A DNA stretch of 64,000 nt, taken from the IMG/VR virus record IMGVR_UViG_3300031998_000003, positions 128,001-192,000 of that record; one strand, 5' to 3'. The position numbers and the translations under genes were made by a program. Each line of letters opens with the position of its first letter. The stretch's first letter is position 1. A model generated the notes under the pieces. That model did not search any database, was not told where the DNA came from, and saw nothing but the letters and a program-made list of their open reading frames with translations. Positions 8,357-44,763 of the stretch are shown here, one piece after another. This DNA is from a virus. Its lineage: Duplodnaviria > Caudoviricetes.

Positions 8357-8371
8357 CTATTATTTTAAATC

Positions 8372-8399
8372 TCTATCTATATATTATTAATGTGAATAA
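8372..8399 (+). promoter_or_regulatory. Early-type promoter; 28 nt identical to 28793-28820 on the minus strand
   Basis: TCTATCTATATATTATTAATGTGAATAA occurs twice, each time ahead of small accessory genes. Confidence 0.75.
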
Positions 8400-8509
8400 G
8401 GAATAAGCATCACCCCTGTTGAAACTTATTCCGGGTAGTAAATTTTCTATGCCGCCCTGACATCGATGGTTCCTGTAGCCGATAAGTACAGGAGAAAACG
8501 GAGGCTATT

Positions 8510-12237: not shown

Positions 12238-12296
12238 TATAATTACATCACCGAAATACCATTAAATACCATATTAATTAAGGAGGAACACGAACC

Positions 12297-12725
12297 ATGG
12301 CACAGCCCAATGATCTTGTGGAAGCCGTATTTACCGGACAGAAGCTCGGTAACGCCATGACAAATGGTGCAATCGATCTGATCAACAGTGTCTCGAATTC
12401 GATTTCCAATGTGCAGAATCAGCTTGCAAATCCTGGTGCTCCTGTGATGCAACCCCAACCTGAATTCGATCAGTTCAGTAGACGTAACTGGGGTGGTGGT
12501 GGATTTAATCCGCAACCTCAGCCGCAGCCGGGAATGCCGATGATGCAGCCTCAACAGAACACATATACGCCCGCCACGTATGTGTGGGGTACCCCGAATC
12601 AGGGTCACGGCGTTTCATCGTCTGATTATCCTGGAATCTCGAATCCCTCATATGGGAAAACTGGATATGTCGGTGCAACATTCCAGAATTTCGGGAATAG
12701 CAGTTCTCCGTGGGGTACATGGTAA
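12297..12725 (+). CDS. Q/P/G/N-rich low-complexity (prion-like) protein
   Basis: RBS AGGAGGAAC; composition; DQFSRRN motif. Confidence 0.8.
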   Translation: MAQPNDLVEAVFTGQKLGNAMTNGAIDLINSVSNSISNVQNQLANPGAPVMQPQPEFDQFSRRNWGGGGFNPQPQPQPGMPMMQPQQNTYTPATYVWGTPNQGHGVSSSDYPGISNPSYGKTGYVGATFQNFGNSSSPWGTW

Positions 12726-13096
12726 TGACCTTTATTGAGTTCTGCGAAAAGTTAACCATTCAATTGGAGATCACACTTCCGGATGCACCGACCGGAAGTG
12801 ATCTCGCTCCTGAGCTGGAGAGTCGTGTTAATGGCTTGGTTGCGTCGATTCGTAATCAGAAGAATCGTCTCGACAGAGTACCGCTCGCATTTGTTCAGCA
12901 TGCGCTTGAAGATACGGATATTGTCAGCAGTTGTCTTGAACAATTTGATGACGGTAATATCCCGGATGCTTTGTTCGAAACGCTTGCGATGAAGTTGTAC
13001 GAAACCAAGTTCAACGATCTCGATATACAGCATCAGAATATAATTGAAATCCTGTCAGTGTACATTATCGTATCCACCGTACAGGATTCCAATTAA
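12719..13096 (+). CDS. Hypothetical acidic protein
   Basis: Overlaps the upstream stop (ATG at 12719, or TAATG coupling at 12725). Confidence 0.7.
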   Translation: MVMTFIEFCEKLTIQLEITLPDAPTGSDLAPELESRVNGLVASIRNQKNRLDRVPLAFVQHALEDTDIVSSCLEQFDDGNIPDALFETLAMKLYETKFNDLDIQHQNIIEILSVYIIVSTVQDSN

Positions 13097-13117
13097 ATAA
13101 TCAAGGAGGAACACACA

Positions 13118-13789
13118 ATGAATTTCAAAGGTAATGTCAGCGCAAATGAAGTTCCGGTAAAGTTCTATCGGTTCTCCGCATCGGATGTCGTCAGACATCT
13201 CCAGGATCAGCTCGGTTTCCAGATCAAGGCGGATTTTCGCGTATGGGACAATCGTGCTGAATGGGAAAAGCCCGGCACTGTCGGTAAGTGCTACGTGATC
13301 ATGCGTGCAATCTTCCGTCCTGAGGACGTGACGATTCCGCAGAACGCTGCAACTTATGCCGAGCGTCAGATCATGGCAATGGGTGCAGGTGTCCAGATGC
13401 AGAAGGATGTTATGGATACCCTGAAGCCGTTCATGTTCCCGCAGAATATGCCGAATATCCAGTGGCAGCCGGATGAGCTTGCACGTTTTGCAACAATGGG
13501 TATTCATGGCAATCGTCTGCAGGAGCTGATTAATCGCCCGGGCATTTTCTATGATCGCGAGAATAATCACTACGGCGTCTATCTGCGTCCTGAGCGTATC
13601 CTGAATGATATCTTCATCGATACTGCAACTGGTCAACCGGCAGGTCTTGTTGACATCATCAATGTTCGTGATTCTGAACAGGCTGAGGCTATCCAGTGGG
13701 ATATGCTTCTCTGGACGAACAAGGCTTCTGGCACATCCGGTTATGGTGTTACCATCGACGACGTGTTCGGTCAGCAGATTCCGCAGTAA
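13118..13789 (+). CDS. Hypothetical protein, 223 aa
   Basis: RBS AGGAGGAACACACA; biased codon usage; hairpin at 13810-13832 follows. Confidence 0.8.
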   Translation: MNFKGNVSANEVPVKFYRFSASDVVRHLQDQLGFQIKADFRVWDNRAEWEKPGTVGKCYVIMRAIFRPEDVTIPQNAATYAERQIMAMGAGVQMQKDVMDTLKPFMFPQNMPNIQWQPDELARFATMGIHGNRLQELINRPGIFYDRENNHYGVYLRPERILNDIFIDTATGQPAGLVDIINVRDSEQAEAIQWDMLLWTNKASGTSGYGVTIDDVFGQQIPQ

Positions 13790-13861
13790 TAAAATCCCAG
13801 TGATAAGTGAGTGGCGGGTTAAACCCGCCACTTGCTTTATCATTATGAAAGGAGGGAGAGT

Positions 13862-14923
13862 ATGGAACTCGATATTTCAGCAATGATCGATAAAGTCGAG
13901 ACCTTTATCGAAGGTGGATGGAGAACTGATACATGTCTGACTGTTGGCGGAATGGCAGGCACATTGACGTTCAAAAATGTTCTGAATGCAATCGTCAAAA
14001 CTGTAGACTTCAACAAGATCATGATTGTTGATGGGTGTAGAGACTATATCGGTCTAGCAAGAAGATCGGTACCAAACTACCTCTTCTACCAAGATCTGTT
14101 TCGTCACATGCCTTCTCCTGATTTGATTGATCTGGTGGATCCTATGCGTGTTCGGGTTGTATTCCCGAAAGAGGGTCATATCCTGTACTTCAATATGAAT
14201 ATGGTGAAAAACTTCGACGTGATGTTGGTCAACAACGCACAGCTGATACCGTATGAGTATATGAAAATGATCAAGACACAATTCTGTGGAAAGCTGGTTC
14301 TGATTGTGGATCCATTTGAGATTCATGCAGAGAATTATGCTAGAGAAGATTATGTGACTGACGTATTGTCAAAACAATCAATGAACATTGCATTTGCCAG
14401 AAGTCTGTTTGATGTTGAAACACGAGCTATTGATCGTAAGGTTCGTTGCAGCTGTGAACAGATCAAAATGGCTAGACGTTCCATAGGTAAAGCTGATACG
14501 AAGCAGTACATCACAAATTCAGATGCGGTGCTGAATGAAGTGCGTGAAAAGCAATATCGTATCGGTGCAGCCAGACGGAATATGAGATTCGTTCTAAAGG
14601 AGGATTACATCACGTTCTTACCGGACCAGGATGAACGTTTGATTACTCTCGGTCCACAGACGATGTTTTCTGTCATGTCTGTTACAAAGACTCTGTTGAA
14701 GTTGCGGATTCATTCAACGCAGTCTCAGATTTGGTCTTCGATTTCATATAAACCGAAGACTGGTGGTTTGTATGTCGAACCAGCAAATATCATATCATTA
14801 GATCAAGCAGTACATCACCGATTTAAAGACGTGGTAATGGTATTGGGCGAAGAGCCCATGACAAAACGACAGTGGTATACACTGTTGAAAATCGCCAACA
14901 ATATTTCTATTGTAAATTTCTGA
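13862..14923 (+). CDS. Degenerate RecD2/Dda-like SF1B helicase homolog, probably ATPase-dead
   Basis: GGMAGTLTF (Walker A lacks GKT), MLVNNAQL (Walker B lacks DE), LIVDPFEI, LDQAVHHRFKDVVMV and RQWYTLLKIA occur in SF1B motif order; start moved to ATG 13862 behind GAAAGGAGG. Confidence 0.6.
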   Translation: MELDISAMIDKVETFIEGGWRTDTCLTVGGMAGTLTFKNVLNAIVKTVDFNKIMIVDGCRDYIGLARRSVPNYLFYQDLFRHMPSPDLIDLVDPMRVRVVFPKEGHILYFNMNMVKNFDVMLVNNAQLIPYEYMKMIKTQFCGKLVLIVDPFEIHAENYAREDYVTDVLSKQSMNIAFARSLFDVETRAIDRKVRCSCEQIKMARRSIGKADTKQYITNSDAVLNEVREKQYRIGAARRNMRFVLKEDYITFLPDQDERLITLGPQTMFSVMSVTKTLLKLRIHSTQSQIWSSISYKPKTGGLYVEPANIISLDQAVHHRFKDVVMVLGEEPMTKRQWYTLLKIANNISIVNF

Positions 14924-14935
14924 GGTGTAGTTGAT

Positions 14936-15565
14936 ATGAGACGGAAAATGCTAAAGAACGAATGCAATGTCTTCCGAAAAACTGTTCCACGGTTGTTTGA
15001 AATGATCTGCTCAATGGACAAAATGATGACAAAAATCATTGGACGTGAAAGTTATTCATTTGATCAAGTCACTGTTATTGAAAAGATGACTTATGACGTA
15101 ATCGCAGTGTCTTGCGTGTATCGTGATAATTTCTTCTTTAATAAGGTCAAACTGGGATCGTTAAATGCATCACTTTCAGGATTATCTGATATCGTTGGTG
15201 ATCTGGAAAAAGTTGCCAGAGAAGCTGATGGACTGGCAGTCACGATTCGTGATTCCATAAAACTCTATCAGCAAAACGAAGATCATATTGAAAAACCTGA
15301 TAATTTTGAGTTTAAACTCCTACAGCTCGATATGCAATTAGGCGAGAAGTTTTTTGAAATTCGAAGAGCTTACTTGATGATTCGCTCATTATTAATGGAT
15401 TTAAGATTCATTGTCATGCGGGATTACACCAGGATCCTAATGGGCGTTGATCTGATTCAGGAATATAAGCGTTCTCAAAAAGGGGCTCGACGAATTGTAA
15501 TAAAAGCTTTACCGCTTGAAGAATTTGCAAAATTGAACCATAAAGGAGGAGATTCTGATGAATGA
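14936..15565 (+). CDS. Hypothetical protein, 209 aa
   Basis: RBS GAGGTG; within the operon. Confidence 0.7.
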   Translation: MRRKMLKNECNVFRKTVPRLFEMICSMDKMMTKIIGRESYSFDQVTVIEKMTYDVIAVSCVYRDNFFFNKVKLGSLNASLSGLSDIVGDLEKVAREADGLAVTIRDSIKLYQQNEDHIEKPDNFEFKLLQLDMQLGEKFFEIRRAYLMIRSLLMDLRFIVMRDYTRILMGVDLIQEYKRSQKGARRIVIKALPLEEFAKLNHKGGDSDE

Positions 15566-17318
15566 TGATCAGTTGGCTTTGGCTGCTGGTTACGAGCGTG
15601 TATATGATTATACGCAGTACAGTCATGAGAATCATGTAAACGTCATCCCGGAAGAAGCATTTGACCGACTCGTCAAAGACACATTCTCAACAATCGCCGA
15701 TACTCTTCGCAAAACGTATGGTCCGTATGCATCAACGGTTCTGATCTCTGAAATGAATGAGATGAGTGCAACCAAAGACGGATACAACGTGTTTAGCGCA
15801 ATATCATTCAGTCAGCCGTACAAGCAGATGGTTTACCGCACCATCAAAAAGATCATCGACGACGTGAATGAAAATGTCGGTGATGGCACAACTTCGTGTA
15901 TCCTGCTGGCTGAAAAGATGTACGGCGAGATCAAGAAGACTCTGACCACGGTTGAACACAAGATGCAGATTCTTTCTGTTCTTACAAACATTGAGAACTA
16001 TCTCAAGGATCGGACGTTCGTGGAAAAAGACACTGAAGCCGGAATTATTAAGCCGCTGACTCGGAAAGCACTGGATCGATTGATCAATGTTGCTGACAAC
16101 TACGACTCGGAACTCGCGCAAATTGTCTATGATGCATTGAATCCAAAGTTCGATAACGACACGGATGAAGATGCAGCGGTTACAGACATCAACAATGTTG
16201 TTGTTAAGAGTTTCATAACACGTGATATTTCATGTGCTTCTACAACATACAAAGTTGATCATTTGCCGGGTGATTACCGCATTAACTGCTATATCGAAAA
16301 TGAGGATATGCGTTGGTGGTATTCTGAGGGTCGTGATGTAAATGTCGCGATTTACGATCACAAGTTCGGTGATTCCGATTGGGATTTCTTCATGAACAAA
16401 TACGATCTCGTCACACCGACGTTGATTATCGCCAGAGACTTCAACAAGGAATTCCTTGAGACGACATTCGTGAGATGGCATCGTCAACGGGCTATCGCAG
16501 ATAAGGATCATGGAGCACCGATGACATTCTGTATCATTAAGAGTGATACGCTAAAGGATGATATCGCTGACTTGGCTGCTGCACTTGGAACATCTCCGAT
16601 CGGAATGAAGTCTGTTGCACTGGATCATAGTCTGCTTCCGAAAGTTCATGCTCAGCTGTATGATCACACGATCATGTGCTTTAACATGAATGCTATTCCA
16701 ACGGAATATATTCGGGCGCTGAAATATGAAATGGATGCGGATACACGAAACAGTATGGTTATCAACAAACTGTATCGTGCACGTATTCGTGCGTTGGAGA
16801 ACACTGCAAATGACACCCTGGTCACAATCACATCAGCATCATCTCTTGAATCCAAGATGATTGGTGATAAGGTTGAAGACTGTTTGGCAATAGCTTCTTC
16901 AGCAATGGAATATGGCATCGTTCCAAATCTGTTTGCGTACGGCTATCATCGTATTGATCAGTATCAGTCCATGCATGAAGATGATCCGATTGTTGAGTCT
17001 GTAACACATGCGATTCTAATTTCTATCCATGGTTTGTTTGAAGAAATTTTCAGGTCAAAACACGGTGATAATTATCAGGAACGCTGCAGGGCGATTCAAG
17101 ATGAGATCTATAAGGATCCGTCATGCTCATTTGATATCAAACGTGAAGCATATACTGAAATCGAGGAATTCCCGACATCTGCACAGTATGACCTTGAGGT
17201 GATCTCGGCAACCATCGAGATTGTGAAGTATCTGCTGACATCTCGTGCATGTGTATTTGACGGAAATCTTCTGAAACCTACAGACGACACAGGGCGATAT
17301 GTACCAATCGGAATGTAA
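15558..17318 (+). CDS. groEL: GroEL-like phage chaperonin
   Basis: TYGP, TKDG, VGDGTTS, VEDCL and GIVP motifs; 586 aa. Confidence 0.9.
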   Translation: MNDDQLALAAGYERVYDYTQYSHENHVNVIPEEAFDRLVKDTFSTIADTLRKTYGPYASTVLISEMNEMSATKDGYNVFSAISFSQPYKQMVYRTIKKIIDDVNENVGDGTTSCILLAEKMYGEIKKTLTTVEHKMQILSVLTNIENYLKDRTFVEKDTEAGIIKPLTRKALDRLINVADNYDSELAQIVYDALNPKFDNDTDEDAAVTDINNVVVKSFITRDISCASTTYKVDHLPGDYRINCYIENEDMRWWYSEGRDVNVAIYDHKFGDSDWDFFMNKYDLVTPTLIIARDFNKEFLETTFVRWHRQRAIADKDHGAPMTFCIIKSDTLKDDIADLAAALGTSPIGMKSVALDHSLLPKVHAQLYDHTIMCFNMNAIPTEYIRALKYEMDADTRNSMVINKLYRARIRALENTANDTLVTITSASSLESKMIGDKVEDCLAIASSAMEYGIVPNLFAYGYHRIDQYQSMHEDDPIVESVTHAILISIHGLFEEIFRSKHGDNYQERCRAIQDEIYKDPSCSFDIKREAYTEIEEFPTSAQYDLEVISATIEIVKYLLTSRACVFDGNLLKPTDDTGRYVPIGM

Positions 17319-17404
17319 AGGAATGGGCGGCTTCGGCCGCCCAATTCTAATTTCAATTTCCGATGAACAGAATAATACAATTTTTAGATTCGGTGGTGAA
17401 AATT

Positions 17405-18647
17405 ATGCCTCGTAAAACATTGAAAGCAAATATTTGGAGAAATATTGCTTCTGTGCTGTCTTCCGATAATACCCAATGGAAATCCGCAAAGAATATCGTG
17501 CTGTTTGCGCGTGTTATATCGGTATATCCATCTAAGAACCCGTTGTATTCTGTATGTGAAAGATTGATTCATTTCACAGAACAGAATATTCGTTCGGTGT
17601 CACTCGTGATTGAAACAATGCGTGAAGAAGGAGAAGACCCTGAAATCATATCGCTGATTGAATCATTGCGAGAGAAGCCGACGATCACAACTTCTGCAGA
17701 AGTATTGCGGTTGTGTACGGTTCTTGCTGATTATGTAAAGTATGCAAAGGTACTGAAAGTCAAGGATTCGTTCTTGGGGTCTCTTGATCTGATTGATGAA
17801 GACGATGCGAACATCAAGGAATCTGTTGATAAAGTCTATAAGCTTGCAGTCGAGATTGTGAATGCTTATGATTCTGCTGCGTATCATGAGGTCGCACATT
17901 CATTCGACACGAATAATCTGGAGCAGATGCGTAATGTTATGGCAGATGCAAAGGATTCTCGTTCAGCAGATAAGACAATCATTACCGGTATTCGAGGATT
18001 GAACAATCTCTTGTCACCCGGGTACTTGTCAGGATGCTTGTATATTTATGCAGCATTACCTGGGTGCTACAAGAGTGGTATCCTACTTGAGTCACATGTT
18101 GACACTTGTAAGTACAATGAGCATATCAAGAATACGACAAACGGAAAGACACCAATATCAATGTATATCTCTATGGAGAATACAATGACACAGACGGTTC
18201 GTCGTCTATGGGCAATCCTATTTCCAAATGCTGACTTGTCAATGTTTACAGTTGATGAGACAATTGAAATGATCGAACGCGAATTGACATCTAAGGGATT
18301 TCGATCTGTGATTCTGTATTACGGATACAGAGAGAAATCGACAGCAGACCTGTATGAGATCATCCGTGGTTATAACGACGATAAGCACGTTGTCGTCGCA
18401 TTGTATCTCGATTATATCAAGCGAATTCGTTCTGCACGTACAGATGCTGCAGCAATGCAGTCTGAGAAGTCTGAGCTGCACGCAATTATGAACGAATTGA
18501 AAACCATTGCATCTCAATTTGATATTCCTGTCGTGTCAGGACACCAGTTGAATAGAGCAGCTGCTCAAGCGATTGATGATATCCGTAGACAAGGTGGATT
18601 CAATAAAGCTTCTGAAGCTCTTGGCAGATCCCATATCGGAACTGCGT
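17405..18647 (+). CDS. dnaB: DnaB-like replicative helicase, exon 1
   Basis: IITGIRGLNNLL, Walker A AALPGCYKS, YISMEN, YLDYI, LKTIASQFDIPVVSGHQLNR; start is 17405 or 17363. Confidence 0.9.
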
Positions 18648-19153
18648 AAAATCTTGCGCCTTGATGTAGTAATACATCTCGAAAAACCTTTTTAATTGCT
18701 GGGAACTCGTAACGAAATGTCGGGATGACAATGTCAGAGAATCAGCAGCCAAGTTACCATCAAGACCCCTACAATGAAAGGGGTTGATATGTTATGACTG
18801 ATTGAATTTCATGTTACTGAAAACACTTTGCGCAATATTATATCAAAGCGAACTTATCGATCCATATCTGATAAATACTTTGATAAAAACACAATTCGGT
18901 CTTGATGGTAAAAGGTTCAACGACTATCGAAACTAACGGTGTTAATCACCAAATAAGTCAATACATTCGTATTGACGAAAGGAGTAGAGTAGCGCCAAGT
19001 GGTTCGGGTGTAGAGTAATCATCTAGTAATTCCCGATTAAAGCGAAATGGAAGGGGTCTCACAAGAGATCGTGATATAGTCTGACCATCCATTGTAATGA
19101 TGGAGAAGTTCATAAGAGAACTGCATGGATTAACGACCCATGTGAACATAGTG
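18648..19153 (+). mobile_element. Group I self-splicing intron, 506 nt, with no intact ORF
   Basis: Conserved cores P AATTGCTGGGAA, Q AATCAGCAGCC, R GTTCAACGACTA and S GATATAGTCT. P1 pairs exon GCGU with GCGC, giving U.G at the splice site. The intron ends in G at 19153. P10 pairs AAUCUU with GAGAUU. Splicing restores the frame GTA-W-EIMEVADW. Confidence 0.93.
18789..18905 (+). pseudogene. Remnant of an intron-encoded homing endonuclease gene
   Basis: RBS GAAAGGGG then ATG TTA TGA, followed in frame by FHVTENTLRNIISKRTYRSISDKYF; looped out by a 14-bp stem (18754-18767 with 18898-18911). Confidence 0.55.
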
Positions 19154-19410
19154 GGGAGATTATGGAAGTTGCAGACTGGTTGGCAGAAATGAATATTGAG
19201 AATAATGGTGAAACAAAGATGTTGTATATCGATGCGGTGAAGCAAAGAGATGTTGACTCGAATGGTACCGATGTTCGTATCACTACGATTCGTCATCCGT
19301 TCTTGTCACCTGAATCATTTGCGTTGCGCACAGATATCAATGAGAATTGCTCGATATCTATCCCAGTCTATCACGGACAACAACAGATCAATTACATGGC
19401 GAATATTTGA
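19154..19410 (+). CDS. dnaB: DnaB-like helicase, exon 2
   Basis: Supplies IMEVADW and the arginine-finger-like KQR; in frame after intron removal. Confidence 0.88.
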
Positions 19411-19420
19411 TTCACAAACG

Positions 19421-19439
19421 TGTATATTATTAATTTGAC
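19421..19439 (+). promoter_or_regulatory. Early-type promoter
   Basis: TGTATATTATTAATTTGAC. Confidence 0.65.
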
Positions 19440-19493
19440 AAAAGGCCACAATGTGGTATCTGGCGTCGAATATTTTAAGAGGAGGAACATCCA

Positions 19494-20153
19494 ATGATTG
19501 AGACCTATCAGAGGAATGTGCTCAGTCCGAATGCAACGGTCGACTATGCATCAGAGATGATGCAGCGTTACAGACCGGAAAACCTGCAGTGCGAACCCAT
19601 GATTGGGTTGCGGGTTTTGCTGAAGGATCTCAATGCACGCGTGACAGATCCGAAGACCAGACTGTCACAGATCGATGCCTACATGGGCGTCAATGCGAAT
19701 TGCGGAGGTGTGCTCCGTGGCACAGGCTGTATTCTCAGAGAGACGATGCCTAATGAGATGCAGGATGGGCTGTGGCTGATCACCTTCCCGGTTCCTACAT
19801 CGGTTCTGATGCAGATTCTCTCGAACATGTCAAATGTACTGACATTCATGCGTGAAAATCTCGGTATCGAATCAACCGAGGTGATTGAGATTAATGCATC
19901 TGGCAGGTGTCCTGTCGCGGAAGAAAGCAATCGTCTCGGTATGGTACAGATTGTGCCGCCGTATAACATGGTGCTTGCTCCGCCGAACAACAGCCCGTAT
20001 AAAATTGGGCATATCACCAGAATCAACGACATGTTTGCTCTGTTGCGAACACGTTGGGATTGGTCTAAATTCCGTGTACCGGGAAAGATCGATTACCACG
20101 TAAACGACATCATGTTGCTTTCTCAGCTGATGGTAAACATGTTCGTCAGATAA
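19494..20153 (+). CDS. Hypothetical protein, 219 aa
   Basis: RBS AGGAGGAACATCCA. Confidence 0.8.
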   Translation: MIETYQRNVLSPNATVDYASEMMQRYRPENLQCEPMIGLRVLLKDLNARVTDPKTRLSQIDAYMGVNANCGGVLRGTGCILRETMPNEMQDGLWLITFPVPTSVLMQILSNMSNVLTFMRENLGIESTEVIEINASGRCPVAEESNRLGMVQIVPPYNMVLAPPNNSPYKIGHITRINDMFALLRTRWDWSKFRVPGKIDYHVNDIMLLSQLMVNMFVR

Positions 20154-20172
20154 AAACAAGGAGGAACACACA

Positions 20173-20817
20173 ATGAACATTTACAACACAAATCCAGAGT
20201 GGAATCCGGACTATCCGGTTCCGAACGGGTATGGCTTCGAGCAGTATTGCTATCAGCAGGCCGCTCCGTCAATGGAGTATTATTATACCGGCCAGAGCAT
20301 CTATCCGGTTAATAATGATCCGTATTCCCGCCGTAATCAGCCGACTTCAGCACAGCAGCCGGCACCGTTTGCTCAGTCGAATGGTATTCCGCAGGCTCCG
20401 GCGGCAGGCTGGGGTTTCAATCAGCTTGCTGAAGCACGTCGCATGCAGCAGCCGATGGCACCTGCACCTGGATTCGCTGCACCGCAACCGCAACAGTATC
20501 AGAATCCGTGGGGAGCACCGGCTCAGGTCAACTTCGCTGCAAGTCCTTGGGATGCTGCTCCACAGATCGGTTATTCGTCTCCGGCTCCGTACATTGATCC
20601 GGCTTATGTGAATGCGGCGATGGCTCATCAGAATGCATTCTCTGTTCAGCCGATGTTCAATGCACCTGTGGCTCCGGCGATTGACTGGACTAACAAGAAT
20701 TCTTACGCTGTTGACACGGCTAAGTATGAACCGGTTCAGTTTCAGCAGGTAGCTCAGATTCCTGTTCAGCAGAATCTGCTTGATCAGGTAAAGATGAACT
20801 TTGCTGATCACAAGTAA
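20173..20817 (+). CDS. Q/P/A/Y-rich low-complexity (prion-like) protein
   Basis: RBS AGGAGGAACACACA; composition with spaced aromatics; DPYSRRN motif. Confidence 0.8.
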   Translation: MNIYNTNPEWNPDYPVPNGYGFEQYCYQQAAPSMEYYYTGQSIYPVNNDPYSRRNQPTSAQQPAPFAQSNGIPQAPAAGWGFNQLAEARRMQQPMAPAPGFAAPQPQQYQNPWGAPAQVNFAASPWDAAPQIGYSSPAPYIDPAYVNAAMAHQNAFSVQPMFNAPVAPAIDWTNKNSYAVDTAKYEPVQFQQVAQIPVQQNLLDQVKMNFADHK

Positions 20818-20836
20818 TTGAAAAGGAGGGTTCCGT

Positions 20837-21694
20837 ATGCAAGTGAACTTTCGTTCCAGACTTGCGGAACTTCCTACAGAAGTGCGAGAGGGTTTGGCAG
20901 AGGTGTCATATCAGATCGGTATGACACCTACTGCTAGACGTAATCGGTGTATTGACGTACTCAAGAAATGGGACATTCCGTTCAAAGACATTGGGACTGG
21001 AACCAATCGATTTATTATCAGATATTCTGGATTCGCGGTTAAAATCGCACTTGACAGAGAGGGTGTCGCGGATAATAAACAAGAGATGGTAATGTCTCCA
21101 GCACTGTCACCACATGTGGCAACAGCTCATGAGATTACGAAAGGCGGCCACCTATTGGTGGCCGACTATGCACCGGCTTTTACCTCTTATTCGGAATTCA
21201 TTATGTATCGAAGCAAGATCGCAAGAATTCTCGAAAGCTGGGGTGGAAGATTCCTCTTGGGTGATGTAGGAATCACCAGTGTCAACTACGCAAACTGGGG
21301 AATATTTCATGGAGAACCTGTATGCATTGATTATGCGTACATCTTTCCCGCATCCATGGATCTATTCACTTGTGTTTGTGGATGCAAACATATGACATTT
21401 ACAGATACGACATTCACACAATATCAGTGTGGTAACCCGAATTGCAAGATGCAGTATACAGATAGAGAGCTTCGCAATCGTATCTCTCAGGATGAGAGAC
21501 TGAAGCTGTTCGCGAATGTATCTCAGAATGCAATTGAAATGACGAGTCCGAATAAACTTGTTGAGGTCGAGGATTATCTGGTGCATCAAGATGTAGATCC
21601 TGATATGCCTGATCCGTATGAGACAATGGATGCTATGATCCAGATGTTTGGATATCCGAGCGACATTCATAATATCGAAGGAGGCAAATGGTAA
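20837..21694 (+). CDS. Protein kinase-like protein with a C-terminal Cys cluster
   Basis: Gly-loop IGTGTNR, AVKIA lysine, helix-C Glu (NKQE), catalytic-like GDV..NWG, IDYA (DFG equivalent); CVCGC..CGNPNC. Confidence 0.75.
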   Translation: MQVNFRSRLAELPTEVREGLAEVSYQIGMTPTARRNRCIDVLKKWDIPFKDIGTGTNRFIIRYSGFAVKIALDREGVADNKQEMVMSPALSPHVATAHEITKGGHLLVADYAPAFTSYSEFIMYRSKIARILESWGGRFLLGDVGITSVNYANWGIFHGEPVCIDYAYIFPASMDLFTCVCGCKHMTFTDTTFTQYQCGNPNCKMQYTDRELRNRISQDERLKLFANVSQNAIEMTSPNKLVEVEDYLVHQDVDPDMPDPYETMDAMIQMFGYPSDIHNIEGGKW

Positions 21695-23815: not shown

Positions 23816-23845
23816 ATATATCATTATTCAGAAAGGAGTGATCGT

Positions 23846-24760: not shown

Positions 24761-24854
24761 GTGATGGGGCGCATATGCGCCCCAATCTCTTTTTTTTTTT
24801 GATTCGATTATGGCAAAACGAAAACGTAACAATTTCTAGGAAAGGAAGGTTTCT

Positions 24855-27827: not shown

Positions 27828-27870
27828 AAAAAAAAAGAATAATAGAGGGGACGCGCAATGCGCGTCCCCA
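27828..27870. terminator. Terminator between convergent genes
   Basis: A tract followed by GGGGACGCGCA-A-TGCGCGTCCCC. Confidence 0.8.
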
Positions 27871-27875
27871 TCATA

Positions 27876-28358
27876 TCACGGATTCATGGGCGGATTCTGC
27901 GCCTGCTGCTGAGCGATGACCGCATTGATCGCGGTTTGCATCTGATTCAGTGCAACATAGCCGGGAGCCTGAGGTGTCTGTGAATTGGGTGTCACAGCTG
28001 CACCACAGACTGAGCAGAATTTTGAATTTGCATTTTTAAGCAGTGCCCCGCAGCTGGTGCATGTGCCAGGCATGTTCGCCTTAATCTGACCGGCCATGAG
28101 TTTTACAACTTCATTGAATGCTGCAGTGTAAGTGATCAGATCTTCACCGCAGTTCGGGCAGAACTTCTCAGTGGTGTCAACTGCAGCGTTGCACGACGGG
28201 CAGCTGAAGCGAAGCCCAGCGTTCTGCTGATGATTACCGCAATTGCAGCGGTTGAAGCCACCGTTCTTTTTGATGTTGTGGTCTACAGCCACAAATGCAC
28301 CGGATGTACCAGCGCCAAGGAATGCTGCAATCAGTGCAGACAGTGTGATCGGATCCAT
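27876..28358 (-). CDS. Membrane-anchored double zinc-ribbon protein
   Basis: N-terminal hydrophobic segment; CPSC..FCPNCG and CTSCG..FCSVCG; RBS GAAAGGAGG. Confidence 0.8.
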   Translation of the reverse strand: MDPITLSALIAAFLGAGTSGAFVAVDHNIKKNGGFNRCNCGNHQQNAGLRFSCPSCNAAVDTTEKFCPNCGEDLITYTAAFNEVVKLMAGQIKANMPGTCTSCGALLKNANSKFCSVCGAAVTPNSQTPQAPGYVALNQMQTAINAVIAQQQAQNPPMNP

Positions 28359-28474
28359 AGGGACCCTCCTTTCATAAATAAGCCCTTACGGGCAAAGCAT
28401 TGTGGCTCATCTAAACGCGATGAGCCACTCTTCAAGAAGTGATACAATTTCGATGAAAAGCATGTTATCACTCC

Positions 28475-28669
28475 TCATCTCATTGTGTCCGGCAGCGGGC
28501 TGTAATCCATGCCCAGCCCTGCAAGTGACGTGCTGTTGTCAGCATCACAATCAGCATCACGGTTGCTCGTGATCAGGTAGGTGACACCGACTGCCACGCC
28601 TGCTGCCAGAAGTGCGGATCCCAATACGATACCTGTGATCTTAAGGGCCTCTTTAGTCTGATCGCTCAT
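28475..28669 (-). CDS. Small single-pass membrane protein
   Basis: Start moved to ATG 28669 behind AAGGAG; ITGIVLGSALLAAGVAVGVTYLI. Confidence 0.75.
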   Translation of the reverse strand: MSDQTKEALKITGIVLGSALLAAGVAVGVTYLITSNRDADCDADNSTSLAGLGMDYSPLPDTMR

Positions 28670-28792
28670 GATTTTCTCCTTCCCGCACCACCGCATTGAT
28701 TTGCGGTATCATGATGGTGCATTAAAATATTATAGGAACACACAACGAATTCAGACCCACAGCCAAAGCTTTTGCTAAGGATTCTCGGATCT

Positions 28793-28820
28793 TTATTCAC
28801 ATTAATAATATATAGATAGA
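28793..28820 (-). promoter_or_regulatory. Early-type promoter, identical to 8372-8399
   Basis: 28-nt exact copy in inverted orientation. Confidence 0.75.
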
Positions 28821-28870
28821 TATAAAAAATAATAGGAAAATAAGGGGTGGGGCAAAAGCCCCACCACACA

Positions 28871-31426
28871 TTATTGTTGATTTTTAATGATTTCTGATAT
28901 ATCTACCGTGGATACAATATGACTTAATTGGTCTTTATGAAGGTTATGTGAGATAATGAACATCTGCTCCATTCCGAGAGATGCCATCATGTTTGATAAC
29001 ATCAAAATGAAATCATCTCGGAATGATGAATCCAGATATGCGTCAATTTCATCAACCAGTGGCACATTGTACTGTGTCAACGATGATGCAAGTGACAATG
29101 ACAAAGCCAACGATAATAATGTCGATTCTGACTGAGAACCATACTTGATATCAGCAGAGTGATTTCCACCACATCTGAATGGCAACGTGAACTGTGTCTC
29201 ATCTATAACGGGACGTAATAGTTCGATCTCGTCGTCATACATTACATTCAACAGTCTATTTGCTGTACTGATAGCGCGATCAACTGTATCTCTGATCGCA
29301 AGTACCGGAATGCCTTTTGTCGATGAAGTGGCTTCAGCAATCACTTTGTAACGTTCATCATTTGCCGTATGTGTCTCAATCTCTGCAGACGTCTTGACAT
29401 ATTGATCAAACGCCTTTTCCAATCGATCAAGTTCTTCCTGTAAGACATTTGCTGTACGGGTTGTTTGTTGATACTTTTCGTAGAGCTGATTATACTCACC
29501 GATAGCAACATTATGTTTATCAACAAGCTTTGACAGCTGTGAAATCTTTGTCTCAATACTGTTGATATCAATCTTTTGAATAGACGCAATCACCATCCGT
29601 TTCCTGTCACTCTCTGATATCGTATCGGACATCTGGGCTATTTCTCGTTCTAATTGAAGTTTGCTGTCTTCTTTAATACGAATTAATTGTTTAACAGCAT
29701 CAACATCATCGTCAGTATCAATCGTCAATGACACATTTTTCTTCATGACTTCCAGTGTATGTTGAGAATCTGTGTACTGTTTGATGTACTGATTGAGTTG
29801 CTCTTGTTTTGTAGCTTCTTCAATCATATACTTCAAATAGTCAACGTCGATACCAAGCTTTCCATCAAGAAGATTTGTCATAATGGTTTTGATGTTGAAC
29901 ATTCCACACAGATCATCCGGTAAATCCATACCAATCAGACGCTTGATTGTAAGCACGTTCTTATATGCATGATCCATCTGTTCCAGATCATATCTGGTAA
30001 ACTTACCTTTGGATGTCGCATGGAATGCTTTGAAATACGTCTGCAATGAATCAGCCTGTTTCCGATACAGACATTTCGGATAGTGACAATCCGTAGGGAT
30101 ATCACCTTCAACGGATTGTAGCATTGAATGAATGTATGATATGATAGACTTCTCTTTTTCGGAATCCATCAAAGAAGCACCTTCCGTCATCAGTACTGCT
30201 GATACATCTACATTCTCCAGAATCATCTTCACCAGAAGCTCCAGGTGTTCATGCGTCAACGATGACACGATCTCCTGACAAGATGTGTTCACAGACTGCG
30301 CAACTGACATCATTCCAAACATGAACTGAGACGATGCGCTCACATGAAGTTCAATATGAATTGAGTCAATCTTGTTCTTTAGATCTGCAACAAATCGCTC
30401 CATATCTTCATAGTCTGATTTGGATTTCTGAATTTGCTGAATGATAGATTCAATGTTGTGTTGTTTCTCATACAAGCCATCGATTTCATTCATTAATATA
30501 GAACGATCTGCTTTCATTTGAGATAACTGTTGATTGAGCTGAATCTGTTCATCAACCAGCTTATCATACATCGATGGATCATATGTTCCACCCATTTCAG
30601 CGACGGCATTTTTGTATGATGCACGCTGATTATTGAGCTGATACATCTCGCCTTCTGGATTCTGTTGTTCGATGGTTTGAATCGTTCCAAATAATGCATC
30701 CATTCGGGATTTCATCTGCTGTAGTTCATACAGCATTTTGTCGTATTCAGCACGTTTCGTATCCAGTGTTGCAAACAGTGTTTCATATGATCCATATGTC
30801 TGCAAGAGATATTCCTTTGTATGGTTGAGTGACGTGATGAGTTTATTCGTGAACCGATAATCCTCGGTGGCAAGCTTATGGATCTTATCATAGATATCAA
30901 TACCCATAGCTTTGTTCAACAGATTCTTACGTTGGGTCATTCCCATACCGGCGAACGACGTCAAATTCGTTCCATTAATAATGAATTGGAATATATACTT
31001 ATTTATACCCATGATCTTCTCTATTAATGAATTGAAGGACGTTACACCACCACTTGGATTTAACTCTTCACCGTTATACATGATTGATGAAGATACAGTA
31101 TGTGATTTTCCAGTCGGACGATATGTGTGCGTAATCACATACACTTTTCCGTTGATTTCGTAGATGATTTTCTTACATCCGATTTCTCCCGGAAGAATCA
31201 ACGATAGATCACTACGTTCATCACCAGTCAGATTAATGGATGAGAACGGATGATGTTGCTGTATCATGACAGTCTTTCCACATCTGTTCTTACCGTATAT
31301 TTGTATGATAGGTTGCTTCATCTGGTCATATTTGAACTCAATCTCATTCAGACCTGTTGCAGCCTTGACTCCGATGAAGTTCACCAATTTCAGATAAACA
31401 ATTTTCAAGTTCTTCAGTCCTTTCAT
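28871..31426 (-). CDS. sbcC: SbcC/Rad50-like SMC ATPase
   Basis: Walker A GKNRCGKT, long coiled coil, signature GSQSE, Walker B LVDEIDAYLD, IISHN. Confidence 0.9.
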   Translation of the reverse strand: MKGLKNLKIVYLKLVNFIGVKAATGLNEIEFKYDQMKQPIIQIYGKNRCGKTVMIQQHHPFSSINLTGDERSDLSLILPGEIGCKKIIYEINGKVYVITHTYRPTGKSHTVSSSIMYNGEELNPSGGVTSFNSLIEKIMGINKYIFQFIINGTNLTSFAGMGMTQRKNLLNKAMGIDIYDKIHKLATEDYRFTNKLITSLNHTKEYLLQTYGSYETLFATLDTKRAEYDKMLYELQQMKSRMDALFGTIQTIEQQNPEGEMYQLNNQRASYKNAVAEMGGTYDPSMYDKLVDEQIQLNQQLSQMKADRSILMNEIDGLYEKQHNIESIIQQIQKSKSDYEDMERFVADLKNKIDSIHIELHVSASSQFMFGMMSVAQSVNTSCQEIVSSLTHEHLELLVKMILENVDVSAVLMTEGASLMDSEKEKSIISYIHSMLQSVEGDIPTDCHYPKCLYRKQADSLQTYFKAFHATSKGKFTRYDLEQMDHAYKNVLTIKRLIGMDLPDDLCGMFNIKTIMTNLLDGKLGIDVDYLKYMIEEATKQEQLNQYIKQYTDSQHTLEVMKKNVSLTIDTDDDVDAVKQLIRIKEDSKLQLEREIAQMSDTISESDRKRMVIASIQKIDINSIETKISQLSKLVDKHNVAIGEYNQLYEKYQQTTRTANVLQEELDRLEKAFDQYVKTSAEIETHTANDERYKVIAEATSSTKGIPVLAIRDTVDRAISTANRLLNVMYDDEIELLRPVIDETQFTLPFRCGGNHSADIKYGSQSESTLLSLALSLSLASSLTQYNVPLVDEIDAYLDSSFRDDFILMLSNMMASLGMEQMFIISHNLHKDQLSHIVSTVDISEIIKNQQ

Positions 31427-31559
31427 TCATTGATCATAAAAACAATATATACCTGAAATATTGTTTTACAGAACACATATATTGTTTTTGTGGATAGGGA
31501 GCGTATGGCTTGTCATATGGTTCTGAAAATCCAATACAATAACAAGGAGGAGCTTTTAA

Positions 31560-32240
31560 ATGAGCGAAGAAAACAAGGTAAATTATTCTGAACGTCGCAA
31601 GCGTTTCATGGAGACGTTCAAGGATGACCCGATCCTCACTGAAACACTGCCAAAGCTTGCTGCTGAACTGTTCTATGATGAGTTTGGTGCAAGTCTTCCG
31701 GACATTACAGGTATTCCGGTTGTATGGACAACGTTCTGGCAGCATCTCATGAGTTTCGTACATTCTCAGGAGACTGAGGAGTTCGCAGTATCTGTCTGCG
31801 GTTTCACCGTTCAGTATGTGACTGAGTATTCGGAATCGGATAAAGCGCGTAATATCGTGCCGGAACTCTATCATGAGTATATCCCGATTTTCCGCAAGAA
31901 AGATCACACAGTTGTTCCCGGTTCAAATTATAATGCTGAGTTGTCAGCAAAGTATAACGACTGGAGAACTGTCAACCTCACAGAAATCATTGACAAGGTT
32001 TCGCGTGATGTATTCGAGGAATGTATGAACCGGTGGGGTCTGTATCTCATGATCTCTGCGACAATCTTCCCGTTGGTTGCAGCAATCTATGCGGCGGGTG
32101 TTCACATTGCGTTGGAAACGAAGAAGCCTGTCAACATGTACAACTGGTTCACAATCACTCCGCGTCAGGATGACAAGATTATCCTGACACCGCTTGCGTC
32201 TATTAAGCAGGGTCTGAAAGACGACAACAAAAGAGGTTAA
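31560..32240 (+). CDS. Hypothetical protein, 226 aa
   Basis: RBS AAGGAGG; early-type motif at 31476-31494; UUCG hairpin after the stop. Confidence 0.8.
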   Translation: MSEENKVNYSERRKRFMETFKDDPILTETLPKLAAELFYDEFGASLPDITGIPVVWTTFWQHLMSFVHSQETEEFAVSVCGFTVQYVTEYSESDKARNIVPELYHEYIPIFRKKDHTVVPGSNYNAELSAKYNDWRTVNLTEIIDKVSRDVFEECMNRWGLYLMISATIFPLVAAIYAAGVHIALETKKPVNMYNWFTITPRQDDKIILTPLASIKQGLKDDNKRG

Positions 32241-32286
32241 TGCATGAGGCGCTTCGGCGCCTCATTCATAAATTCTTAAAGGAGGT

Positions 32287-32637
32287 ATGAAAATGATTCT
32301 CTCTATCAATTTGCAATCTTCATCGTTCTCGAATCCACCTGGAAAACATGCGGACACGATGGAGGAAGCGATCGCAACAGCATTCCATGATAAGTTCAAG
32401 GGTTACAAAGACTACAAGGACAACAACGTTCTGGTGAACTTTGAACATGCCGAGGGTGATCAGCCAGCATCAGTATCCGTGTTCATTGATATCGATGGTT
32501 GTACAGAACTGAAAAGTGTCTTCATGCGATTCCAGCAGGCGTTTGTGGATTATATGCATCGGACATATATGAGCAAATTCCAGTCAGAAGCAGAAGCAAT
32601 CATGCCGGTTGATCCAGAATCTGGTTCGGTGGGATGA
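32287..32637 (+). CDS. Hypothetical protein
   Basis: RBS AAGGAGGT. Confidence 0.7.
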   Translation: MKMILSINLQSSSFSNPPGKHADTMEEAIATAFHDKFKGYKDYKDNNVLVNFEHAEGDQPASVSVFIDIDGCTELKSVFMRFQQAFVDYMHRTYMSKFQSEAEAIMPVDPESGSVG

Positions 32638-32894
32638 ATGGTTCCAGATGGGCCGTCTCGATAATGGATGACGATTGTGAAGACTTGATCATCAAAATGT
32701 TTGATACATTCAAAGAAGCCTTTGCATATCTACGTATCAGATATCCATATATGTATTCGGTCGAAACAAACAAGTACCGATATATCTATCAGACAGACCG
32801 CGGATCTAATATCTATGTCTCTATATGGGACAGAAAGGAGCTACCCTATGTATATCGTCGTCGGACTCGGAAACTGCGGCAGCCAAATCGTTAA
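32634..32894 (+). CDS. Hypothetical protein
   Basis: ATGA overlap with the upstream gene. Confidence 0.6.
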   Translation: MNGSRWAVSIMDDDCEDLIIKMFDTFKEAFAYLRIRYPYMYSVETNKYRYIYQTDRGSNIYVSIWDRKELPYVYRRRTRKLRQPNR

Positions 32895-33921
32895 GGCGGC
32901 AGCTCTTTCCGAAAAACTTGCAGCCGACTCCAAGTTCTATGCAATCGATTCAGTCACATCATCGTTTGACATGAAGTCTTTGAGTAACGTGACACCGCTT
33001 CCGATTATCTCGGATGAAAATACCGGTTCTGGTCGTTCACGTGAACGTGGTTCTGAAATGATGCAGATGCATCTGTCTACTCCGGAATTCACAACGCTCA
33101 TACGTGATTGCGGTGAAAGCAAATCCCCTGTTATTCTCATTTCATCAACTGCTGGAGGCACCGGTTCTGGTGCAATTGTTCCTCTATGCAAAAAGATCAT
33201 CGATGAGAATCCGGATATCACATTGATTCCGATTCTCGTTGTTCCCGCAATGGACGATCCGATTGCATATCACATGAATACCGCTGACCTGATGGCTGAG
33301 ATGGGTGAAATCGGTATCAAGACATATTGCGTGTTCCGTAATAAGTCTAAAACGAGCAACTACACTGAAATCAATCAGGAGGTTGTCACTGCAATCGAAA
33401 TCCTTCATGGCAAATGGTATGGTGCAACAGATGTTGATTCCGTTGATGATACCGACATGATCAGAGTTTGTTCAGTTCCTGGTCGCTTGATCATTGTTAA
33501 AACTGAGGCAACGAATACGCAGTATCTGAAACGGCTCATCACCGAAAAGGTTTTGAACGGCAATCAACCATGGTCTGACCCGTCGAACAACTTTTCAATG
33601 CTGGCTATCTCTCTGAAGAGTGGCTTTGCGAATGGTGACATTGATGATGTATTCGATGATATCAAATCACGGTGTCTTGGATGCCTTGATACATTCAAGA
33701 ATCCGATTCAAACAGACGACTCGACAATGGTTGCAACATGCATCATCTCTGGACTTCCGAATGTGAAACTCAGAGAGATTGATTTGAATGATTATCAGGT
33801 TGCATCCGGCATTTCTGATGGAGTTAAGAAATCGACAAGACCCGACTTCATGAAGAAGAATACTTCTGTTAAGAAGTCTACACTCGGATCGATTCGCGGT
33901 CATAAGATTTCTAACGAATAA
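32848..33921 (+). CDS. Tubulin/FtsZ-family GTPase (PhuZ/TubZ-like)
   Basis: VGLGNCGSQI, GSGRSRERG, signature AGGTGSG, T7-loop VDDTD; start ATG 32848 behind GAAAGGAG. Confidence 0.92.
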   Translation: MYIVVGLGNCGSQIVKAAALSEKLAADSKFYAIDSVTSSFDMKSLSNVTPLPIISDENTGSGRSRERGSEMMQMHLSTPEFTTLIRDCGESKSPVILISSTAGGTGSGAIVPLCKKIIDENPDITLIPILVVPAMDDPIAYHMNTADLMAEMGEIGIKTYCVFRNKSKTSNYTEINQEVVTAIEILHGKWYGATDVDSVDDTDMIRVCSVPGRLIIVKTEATNTQYLKRLITEKVLNGNQPWSDPSNNFSMLAISLKSGFANGDIDDVFDDIKSRCLGCLDTFKNPIQTDDSTMVATCIISGLPNVKLREIDLNDYQVASGISDGVKKSTRPDFMKKNTSVKKSTLGSIRGHKISNE

Positions 33922-34005
33922 GATTTCTTTGTGAAGATATATACATAATTTGTGTGATATCTGATACACAAGGATATCTAAAAAATCATAAGGAGGAACA
34001 TCCAA

Positions 34006-34908
34006 ATGTACGTACAAAACTTTCGCGAGGACCAGATCAGTTTTCTCGATAGTGTCGAACGCTATCTTGAAAAGGCTGGTATCAAGGTCCAAGCGATGGC
34101 ACCTCAGCAGCGTCTGGCAGTTATGACCAATGCTCGCAACACATTGTATTCATACGATGCCCAGATCATCGGTGACGTCGCTCGTCGTATCCTCAGATCC
34201 AATCTCGACAATGATACGGATGCACAGGCATTTATGCTGGCATTCTACTATCATGCTCAGGATCCTGCATTCATCACAATCGTGATGAAGTATCTCGAGC
34301 AGAGAAATGATCCGAGTCTGAATGGTGTGGTCGGTGCAGTTCTTCTGAAGGTGAGTGCGCAGTATATTGCGGAGCATAAGCCGAAGGATAAGAAGGACAA
34401 AAAGGACGACGAAACCACCGATGAGATCAAGGAGATTCGTCATATCCAGGCTGCAATCGAGCGTCTGCTCGGTACTGTTGCTGACACAGTTGTTCTGACA
34501 TGCGGAAACATGGCACATCACGAAGCACTCTTTGTCGCGGCATGCCTCGCGATTAACAGTGAGCAGACCATTATCGAGTTGGTGAAGGCTGACCTTCCGG
34601 TAACAGCTGTCATCTTCGATAAGATCATCACTGATCCGAGTTGCATCATCAAGGGTGCACTGCTTCTGAAGAAGAGCGATCTTCCCACGAAGCTCAGCGC
34701 AAACCAGACTGCATTCCTCAACTCTATCAAGAACTGGTTGTTCAAGAAGTTGAATGATACAGTCGAAGACGCTGTACTGCTTTATACCTATTTGGTCGGA
34801 GTATACGGTTCTGTGAAGCCCGATTTGTCTCCGCTGTATATCCAGATCAAGGATTGCGGAACAAGCTATCCGAATCTGCTTACTGTGGCCAAGCAAATTA
34901 CAAATTAA
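34006..34908 (+). CDS. Hypothetical helical protein, 300 aa
   Basis: RBS AGGAGGAACATCCA; early-type motif at 33940-33957. Confidence 0.8.
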   Translation: MYVQNFREDQISFLDSVERYLEKAGIKVQAMAPQQRLAVMTNARNTLYSYDAQIIGDVARRILRSNLDNDTDAQAFMLAFYYHAQDPAFITIVMKYLEQRNDPSLNGVVGAVLLKVSAQYIAEHKPKDKKDKKDDETTDEIKEIRHIQAAIERLLGTVADTVVLTCGNMAHHEALFVAACLAINSEQTIIELVKADLPVTAVIFDKIITDPSCIIKGALLLKKSDLPTKLSANQTAFLNSIKNWLFKKLNDTVEDAVLLYTYLVGVYGSVKPDLSPLYIQIKDCGTSYPNLLTVAKQITN

Positions 34909-34923
34909 GGAGGAACTCGAACC

Positions 34924-35457
34924 ATGGCACAAATTCAAAAGAATCCTATTAAGGAGATCAATCCCGATGTTATCAATCTGATCAAGCCGATCGTTGAAAC
35001 CATGACCCGTAATTACATGGTTGAGCAGCAGATGAAAGGTCAGGTTGGTCCGAATCAGCCGGAGATGCACAAAGCTGAGAAGCTGCGCTGCGTTCACCTG
35101 ATCTGGAAGGGTCTTGAGCCTGAGCCGGCAATGTACATCACAACCGATGATAAGGGCGAGCGCCACATGAAGTGCTATCTCTGCCAGCGTGAAATCGGTA
35201 TGAACTTCGATGACACTGCTATCAAGAAGCTTCTGGATGCACGTACTGTCATCGAGCAGGTGATGTTCTATGGCATGATCAATCACATGCAGGCTGACAA
35301 AGTCGAGATGCTGATTCAGATGAAGTCCATCATTCCGTATATCGCACAGATGGCACAGAACCTGAATAAGTTTGTTGCGAAGGATGACAGCTATCAGGAT
35401 TCCATCGGCAACGTCGGTCGTGAGTATCGGAATTCCATCACTAGCGGCGGATTCTAA
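34924..35457 (+). CDS. Hypothetical protein with a possible Zn site (CxH..CxxC)
   Basis: RBS AGGAGGAAC; LRCVH and KCYLC. Confidence 0.8.
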   Translation: MAQIQKNPIKEINPDVINLIKPIVETMTRNYMVEQQMKGQVGPNQPEMHKAEKLRCVHLIWKGLEPEPAMYITTDDKGERHMKCYLCQREIGMNFDDTAIKKLLDARTVIEQVMFYGMINHMQADKVEMLIQMKSIIPYIAQMAQNLNKFVAKDDSYQDSIGNVGREYRNSITSGGF

Positions 35458-44523: not shown

Positions 44524-44541
44524 AAGCAAATACATAATGAT

Positions 44542-44740: not shown

Positions 44741-44763
44741 AAATTCTTCTTTAACGGTTTAAT

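Follow-up and report, generated by a model that had tools for sequence, protein, structure and literature searches.

Extended start regions shared by unrelated genes of an uncultured AR9-like jumbo phage, and a putative complementary phage RNA that may address them

Why should genes with no evident relation to each other begin with almost the same letters? The question is raised by a 64,000-nucleotide (nt) stretch of viral DNA (IMG/VR record IMGVR_UViG_3300031998_000003), hereafter the window, which covers bases 128001–192000 of a single 248,669-bp contig with 42% G+C. A first-pass annotation of the window had pointed to three pairs of near-identical translation initiation regions and had proposed that a trans-acting RNA or protein recognizes them, defining a regulon of six hypothetical genes. 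Our analysis, computational throughout, describes a single extended class of start regions to which the six belong, together with a conserved non-coding element of the same window that carries the complement of this class; as a tentative reading of these sequences, held at a little under even confidence, the class would pair with one phage RNA and form a translational regulon controlled in trans. The source is an uncultured AR9-like jumbo phage of the rumen, the stretch having been detected in cattle and sheep gut metagenomes from 13 studies, and its strong Shine-Dalgarno (SD) sequences suggest a Firmicute host. A megablast search of window positions 12000–36000 against deposited phages gave no match. 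The comparisons below rely on relatives, three of them nearly complete (G1–G3, 258–278 kb) and two fragments (G4 and G5), with proteins about 35–85% identical to those encoded here and with an orthologue in G1–G3 for 168 of 224 genes. A search for relatives based on the GroEL-like protein returned a single distant locus only. Genes are named by the window position of their first base.

The three matches were found exactly as described: 28 of 29 letters between 12276–12304 and 34903–34931, the sole difference being A/T at position 15, all 21 letters between 13102–13122 and 20157–20177, and all 15 letters between 19480–19494 and 33991–34005. All six regions lie 8–10 nt before an ATG and head open reading frames (ORFs) of 142–300 amino acids (aa). 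In order to place them in the whole genome, we used our own gene calls (224 genes predicted with a simple caller, 94% of the genome) and compared the regions from -30 to +12 of 223 predicted genes all against all. The three pairs headed this ranking, and the 21-mer of the second pair is the longest string shared between start regions in the whole genome; a third gene, at genome position 233189 (window +105189), has 18 of its letters, AAGGAGGAACACACAATG. The motif AGGAGGAAC occurs seven times in the window against 0.24 expected, a count reached by none of 100 dinucleotide shuffles, and at nine sites genome-wide. Identity beyond the SD therefore exceeds the expectation from composition, and the same holds for the all-against-all runs when each column is permuted among genes with the same SD position: there were 8 identical runs of at least 15 letters against 1.4 in these column-shuffled controls and 41 of at least 13 letters against 11, long shared runs being 4–6 times above the controls, with the same excess in three relatives.

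The paired genes are not paralogues, since BLASTP returned nothing at E below 6 and profile-profile comparison of the orthologue alignments with hhalign gave probabilities of at most 1.3%. Because 13118, 20173 and 34924 begin only 15–21 nt after the preceding gene, the shared element is translational rather than a promoter. A fourth pair of unrelated genes lies outside the window, at genome positions 7968–8267 (minus strand) and 198492–199223 (plus strand), and has 31 of 32 letters in common, including the first five codons (AAAGGAGAACATCAAA, one mismatch, then ATGAAAGAGAAAAAA).

The grouping itself had to be redrawn. The AAC extension reaches beyond the six genes: of the 153 start regions built on a GGAG core, 16 read GGAG(G)AAC, so that the six belong to a wider class, and the four letters most often found after that core are GAAC (11/153). 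Instead of three pair-specific signals there is one class with variants, AGGAGGAAC(A) followed by an A/C-rich spacer without G and often by ATGGC, and instead of six genes it comprises at least 9–10 here, including those of an RNA polymerase beta-like subunit and a NAD-dependent DNA ligase. Conservation in the relatives was found for the type and not for the letters: AGGAGGAA(A)(A)CAC is kept in orthologous start regions, whereas the exact spacers are not. The most similar start-region pairs of the relatives again involve the orthologues of 13118, 20173, 34006 and +105189, in combinations and letters specific to each genome: a 22-mer common to the 20173 and +105189 orthologues in G1, a 24-mer common to the 20173 and 34006 orthologues in G2, and a 19-mer common to the same two in G3.

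None of the six proteins matched a family in Pfam or PHROGs, and three further predicted targets of the RNA described below gave nothing against Pfam. Protein atlas scores for the 138-aa protein of +105189 were below 0.9 and uninformative, and the AlphaFold model of the 34006 product, all-helical with a predicted local distance difference test score (pLDDT) of 72, had no Foldseek match in the PDB at E ≤0.001. Directly upstream of 34006, the conserved core target candidate, lies a tubulin/PhuZ-like gene (32848–33921), and a GroEL-like gene (15558–17318) belongs to the same plus-strand cluster.

The seventh AGGAGGAAC site in the window (44874–44882, minus strand) is not a gene start; it precedes only an ORF of about 35 codons, and the ORF-free block of 479 nt in which it lies is flanked by convergent genes. 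Reading the site as part of a small minus-strand gene was considered and rejected, since G1, G2 and strain L091 do not retain the ORF and insertions and deletions between close strains are not multiples of three. On the plus strand, the same block holds a conserved, structured element, the putative RNA, whose homologue stands directly after the helicase gene in all five related contigs. Its closing stem (ATCCGGGGTG...CACCCCGGAT here) has 10/10 pairs formed in six sequences, of which 2/10 are changed on both sides (GGGG/CCCC, AA/TT and AG/CT, with AA/TT or AG/CT in the relatives). A promoter-type motif, AAC(G/A)-N6-TA, predicted to drive the element, stands directly before the closing stem in 6/6 genomes with a varying N6, and a terminator hairpin, its loop UUCG or GAAA, is found at the same place in the relatives. 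The plus strand folds at -93.4 kcal/mol (z = -6.75).

In the minimum free energy fold of this genome the last hairpin has CCUCCU(A) as its apical loop; in G2–G5 the first C is taken up by the closing pair of the stem and the loop begins one base further on (CUCCUU or CUCCUAU), and in G1 a longer loop holds two CCUCC. The loop CCUCC is 0.77–0.90 unpaired in the ensembles of the five relatives, the value here, 0.71, belonging to a second CCUCC further upstream, and the hairpin arms vary between genomes yet stay paired. An Rfam search of 44400–45100 returned chance-level rows only and no family. A pattern scan of IMG/VR for homologues recovered the known contigs and one chance match in a GC-rich phage, and a scan of metagenomes added two further near-identical strains of this genome. 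Directly before the element lies a second ORF-free structured stretch (44524–44764) with its own terminator hairpin (44713–44740); it is absent from G2, G3 and G5, and G4 has a different extra element there.

Read as complement, the RNA of this genome spells AGGAGGAACATCACACATGGCG, and in every genome the 5′ arm of the hairpin contains the complement of what comes after the SD in members of the class. The two change together. In this genome and in G1 the arm next to the loop reads GUUCCUCC and the start regions GGAGGAAC; in G3 and G5 the arm GUUUUCCUCC faces start regions with GGAGGAAAAC, with 14–15 nt of perfect complementarity to the 34006 orthologue; in G2 the arm GUUUUCCUCC is found with start regions reading GGAGGAAAC; and in G4 the arm additionally has CAUGGCAU, while only the 34006 orthologue of G4 reads ATGCCATG. 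Recognition in trans of the extended start region, as first proposed, thus has a candidate RNA in the same window, with a complementary hairpin that co-varies with the start region of the 34006 orthologue in six genomes; what does not fit is the loss of the exact spacers in the orthologues.

To rank targets, we computed duplex energies of the 29-nt arm-plus-loop segment with every start region, taking the best duplex only; RNAcofold of the full RNA with each start region was dropped because the program has no way to form a helix between two molecules within a closed multiloop and breaks the closing stem. By duplex energy the 34006 orthologue ranked 7, 2, 3, 1, 1 and 1 in the six genomes. Its group came first among 119 orthologue groups in mean energy, in specificity for its own over foreign RNA and in rank, the advantage of the own RNA being 5.8 kcal/mol (about 3.5 standard deviations), and was followed in order by the groups of 65500 (RNA polymerase beta-like), +105189, 20173 and 19494. 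After correction for accessibility, with the opening energies of both partners added to the duplex energy, the 34006 group stayed first (115–119 orthologue groups). The ten best corrected targets in this genome are +105189, 65500, 34924, 12297, the ligase gene, 34006, a 392-aa gene, 13118, a 207-aa gene and 20173, with net energies of -8 to -13 kcal/mol; 5/6 genes of the first-pass annotation are thus among them. When the arm was shuffled and the loop kept, pairing with the 34006 orthologue became worse in all six genomes (p = 0.000, that is below 0.005, 0.010, 0.015, 0.010, 0.005 and 0.020), and -24 kcal/mol is reached by 9 start regions of this genome, where shuffled arms give an expectation of 1.3.

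From these results a mechanism can be proposed (Table 1 collects the features). The loop CCUCCU, a copy of the anti-SD of the ribosome, would contact the SD of the class mRNAs; pairing would spread from the loop into the 5′ arm and cover the spacer and the start codon over 17–20 bp, and the ribosome-binding site would be closed, so that translation of the set would be lowered once the RNA accumulates. The letters AAC after GGAGG do not pair with the near-universal 3′ tail of 16S rRNA (GGAGGUGAUC). They do pair with GUU of the RNA, and can for this reason serve as an address, which would separate the targets from other mRNAs with a strong SD, such as those of the 10–11 other genes per genome that carry GGAGGTG. 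We infer that the RNA is made, from which strand and when, that it pairs in cells and with what sign: repression is suggested by the example of Firmicutes RNAs that display an anti-SD in a loop and of the c4 RNA of P1, and late timing by the promoter motif. Genes 19494, 20173 and 65500 lie downstream of early-type promoters, an arrangement that would suit a late shut-off. Non-coding DNA of the genome contains a copy of an 11-mer from the start regions at one further place only, a 14-nt stretch in the leader of an early minus-strand transcript; it is present in this genome only and has no counterpart in the relatives, which makes this antisense weak.

Table 1. Positions of the start regions, the candidate RNA and the recurrent motifs within the window.
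Feature	Position	Strand	Remarks
Start region of 34006–34908 (300 aa, all-helical, no family)	33991–34008	+	conserved core target candidate
Start region of 12297–12725 (142 aa, no family)	12276–12304	+	SD AGGAGG, AAC, 10-nt spacer, ATGGCA; predicted target rank 4/223 accessibility-corrected, rank 2 by duplex energy alone
Start region of 34924–35457 (177 aa)	34903–34931	+	28/29 identical to 12297; predicted target rank 3/223
Start region of 13118–13789 (223 aa, no family)	13102–13122	+	operon-internal, 21 nt after upstream gene; predicted target rank 8
Start region of 20173–20817 (214 aa, no family)	20157–20177	+	operon-internal, 19-nt gap; predicted target rank 10
Start region of 19494–20153 (219 aa, no family)	19480–19496	+	12 letters, AGGAGGAACATC, fully complementary to the RNA; AR9-type early promoter motif upstream, at 19421–19441
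Late promoter motif, AR9-type, AACG-N6-TA	44753–44764	+	predicted +1 at 44765, first base of the closing stem
Conserved structured RNA (putative), 156 nt	44765–44920	+	closing stem of 10–12 bp, multiloop of hairpins, last hairpin with CCUCCU apical loop
Anti-start-region segment	44861–44885	+	5′ arm and loop of the last hairpin; complement of ATGGCG, spacer and AGGAGG; seventh AGGAGGAAC site on the other strand
Terminator-like hairpin	44932–44955	+	10 bp, UUCG loop; closes the RNA unit; probably also stops the convergent minus-strand gene
Antisense stretch, 14 nt, in leader of early minus-strand transcript	28734–28747	-	antisense to AGGAACACACAATG of 13118 and 20173, one G-U
Early motif CTATCTATATATTATTAATGTGAATA	8355–8400; 19421–19441; 28790–28835; 63047–63067	+; +; -; +	many further copies outside the window
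Late-type motif before large genes	24817–24828; 62421–62432; 6077–6088	+; -; +	
Upstream motif AAATCTAT	39979; 54041; 59677	+; +; -	includes the tail-sheath-like gene 55664–59650

Several observations weigh against a regulon addressed by this RNA. The six genomes in which co-variation was followed amount to only about four independent lineages, and in G2 the RNA is offset by one A relative to its start regions. For G2 and G3, the comparison with shuffled arms singles out the 34006 orthologue and leaves the wider set unremarkable; the wider regulon may therefore be confined to this genome and G1, or it may be an artefact of a consensus for strong initiation common to its members. The anti-spacer arm is base-paired in the free RNA, with an opening cost of about 12 kcal/mol. 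With a crude assignment of promoter classes, the start-region class was linked (early over late) in G1 only (p 0.02) and in none of the other three genomes. The minus strand folds nearly as well as the plus strand (-88.9 kcal/mol, z = -6.57), and folding alone therefore cannot fix the strand; the plus strand is favoured by the conserved promoter motif, by G-U pairs in the hairpin and by the lack of a conserved minus-strand ORF. In the one RNA data set that contains this phage, a sheep gut metatranscriptome run (X24), contigs include parts of 32911–35322 (contigs 34200–35322) and other genes but not 44282–45349, and are uninformative on the expression of the RNA.

The serious rival, and the main one, is convergent selection for strong initiation, which we consider unlikely as a full account but far from negligible. 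It holds that the class represents no more than the optimum for strong expression on the host's ribosome, a full SD followed by an unstructured A/C-rich spacer without G, that few sequences reach this optimum, so that unrelated genes end up alike, and that the RNA is a general anti-SD (acting, for example, on host mRNAs or ribosomes) or incidental. The possibility that the motif is one of highly expressed genes gains from the finding that 4/11 genes with GGAGGAAC lie in the top tenth by codon score, as is expected if the motif marks high expression, and from AA being the commonest pair after GGAGG in all four full genomes; the orthologues that keep the type but not the letters, and the wider set of G2 and G3 that the RNA fits no better than shuffled arms do, also speak for it. 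Convergence leaves unexplained, however, why in four lineages a change of the 34006 start region goes with one of the RNA arm, among them the CAUGGCAU/ATGCCATG match that only G4 has. Moreover, the 10-nt spacer common to 12297 and 34924 (AACNCGAACC) departs from the supposed optimum, and the controls that keep the composition of each position give 4–6 times fewer long matches.

Copying alone, in which start regions of about 20–30 nt, sometimes with the first codons, would have been moved by short-homology recombination or gene conversion and would reflect recent descent with no common regulation, seems improbable as the whole explanation, even if it may account for some of the letters. The start region of 34924 and the 7–8 or so N-terminal codons that go with it are absent from its orthologues, which marks it as a lineage-specific acquisition, and it is 28/29 identical to that of 12297, including spacer letters that would lie in an internal loop of the predicted RNA duplex, an identity reaching beyond the letters that pair with the RNA. 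Since exact spacers are not kept in orthologues, part of the letter identity looks like lineage-specific copying, and the 12297/34924 pair in particular is best read, from its sequence, as a whole start region copied recently. Which members of the gene set form identical pairs varies from genome to genome, as copying would have it, but the recurrence of the same four orthologue groups in every genome and the complement in a conserved non-coding RNA are left unexplained by it, and tracts of 15–29 nt are short for homologous exchange. Copying may well act together with pairing to the RNA and not instead of it, and could be how genes join the set.

A protein repressor of the T4 RegA type that recognizes the extended start region has the T4 precedent in its favour, along with the lack of a known family for most genes of this phage, and we judge it very improbable: a six-frame search of the genome gave no match to PF01818, a negative of unproven sensitivity as the control genomes gave none either, and no particular protein is indicated, whereas a complementary RNA is present. 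Least probable of all is a transcriptional likeness, with the AACA behind the SD serving as the -11 element of a late promoter of AR9 type (AACA-N6-TA/G), because, although the phage has AR9-like motifs and the 34006 site reads AACA-N6-TG, that site is the only 1/7 with T and a purine at the right distance, the transcript would start on the G of ATG and destroy the start codon, and a perfect SD 8–10 nt before ATG, in three cases 15–21 nt after an upstream gene, is simpler.

Pairing of the class with a phage RNA would resemble several known systems. Firmicutes have trans-acting small RNAs (sRNAs) with C-rich loops that mask the SD, such as RNAIII and RsaE/RoxS of Staphylococcus aureus, FsrA and SR1 of Bacillus subtilis. 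Like these, the phage RNA displays a C/U-rich anti-SD in a hairpin loop, would pair from the SD towards the start codon and has several unrelated mRNAs as (predicted) targets; unlike these, it is encoded by a virulent-type jumbo phage and its predicted targets are the genes of the phage itself, its loop reproduces the 16S tail with a full CCUCCU where the Firmicutes sRNAs show UCCC, and it belongs to no Rfam family. Phage T4 has RegA, a repressor that acts on the start regions of many early mRNAs, and the RegB nuclease, which cuts GGAG in their SD. The likeness lies in a regulon defined at the start regions of unrelated phage genes, possibly for temporal shut-off, and the difference in that RegA and RegB are proteins, whereas recognition here would be by base-pairing. 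It is conceivable, and we put this forward with more doubt than the pairing itself, that the phage has an RNA version of the RegA circuit, in which a late RNA selects its regulon through the letters after the SD, genes join or leave by gaining or losing a start region of 20–30 nt, and the RNA and the 34006 family have co-evolved throughout the phage group.

In phages P1 and P7, the c4 antisense RNA blocks the ribosome-binding site of the antirepressor mRNA (PMC12197685). This is likewise a phage-encoded RNA that acts in trans on a phage mRNA with complementary stretches in loops and occludes a ribosome-binding site, as predicted here; c4 serves a temperate immunity circuit with one target, whereas about 10 start regions are predicted here in a phage with its own RNA polymerases, and there is no relationship in sequence or structure between the two RNAs. 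For AR9, a PBS1-like Bacillus jumbo phage, published work gives an early and a late (AACA-N6-TA/G) promoter consensus (PMC5312081, PMC7598289) and reports class-specific motifs in 5′ untranslated regions that are left unexplained (PMC5312081); a keyword search of the two papers returned no AR9 regulatory small RNA of such kind. Both promoter motifs and split RNA polymerase beta-like genes are present here as in AR9, and the phage differs by its lack of DNA similarity to any deposited phage and its G+C content.

The window encodes, besides the GroEL-like and tubulin/PhuZ-like proteins, a DnaB-like helicase, RNA polymerase beta-like pieces, a GyrB-like protein, a NAD-dependent DNA ligase, and virion, tail-sheath and head-protease-like proteins. 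The AR9-type early motif CTATATATTAT-N6-G (AR9 form TATATATTAT-N6-G) has many copies in the genome, and CTATCTATATATTATTAATGTGAATA, some 25 nt long and strongly conserved, agrees with the early promoter consensus of AR9, ATATATATTAT-N6-G, and probably marks the early transcription units of a virion RNA polymerase. The late-type motif AAC(A/G)-N6-TA is 2.4–3.3 times enriched in non-coding DNA and stands 24–28 nt before the ATG of several large genes, where it is kept in all three of G1–G3. A third upstream motif, AAATCTAT, occurs genome-wide 6–15 nt before the SD of several large genes, and a fourth recurrent one reads ATATATCATT. At 37902–37946, at the 5′ end of gene 37841–39988, an ACT/ACA-rich short repeat varies in length between strains, and many unrelated contigs attach at this tract. 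In the helicase gene (42403–44523, 706 aa), about 670 nt (42785–43456) are skipped by contigs of two other metagenome runs, and the orthologues have 365–482 aa; the segment is probably an intein or another mobile insertion.

If the proposed pairing is true, the phage would provide a clear example of a virulent-type jumbo phage with a base-pairing sRNA that controls a set of its own genes, none having been found in the literature searched. How phages that bring their own RNA polymerases time gene expression after transcription is largely unexplored. Testing the prediction does not require growth of the phage. A regulon addressed through the spacer beside a universal SD would, if it holds, be a simple and portable design rule for translational control.

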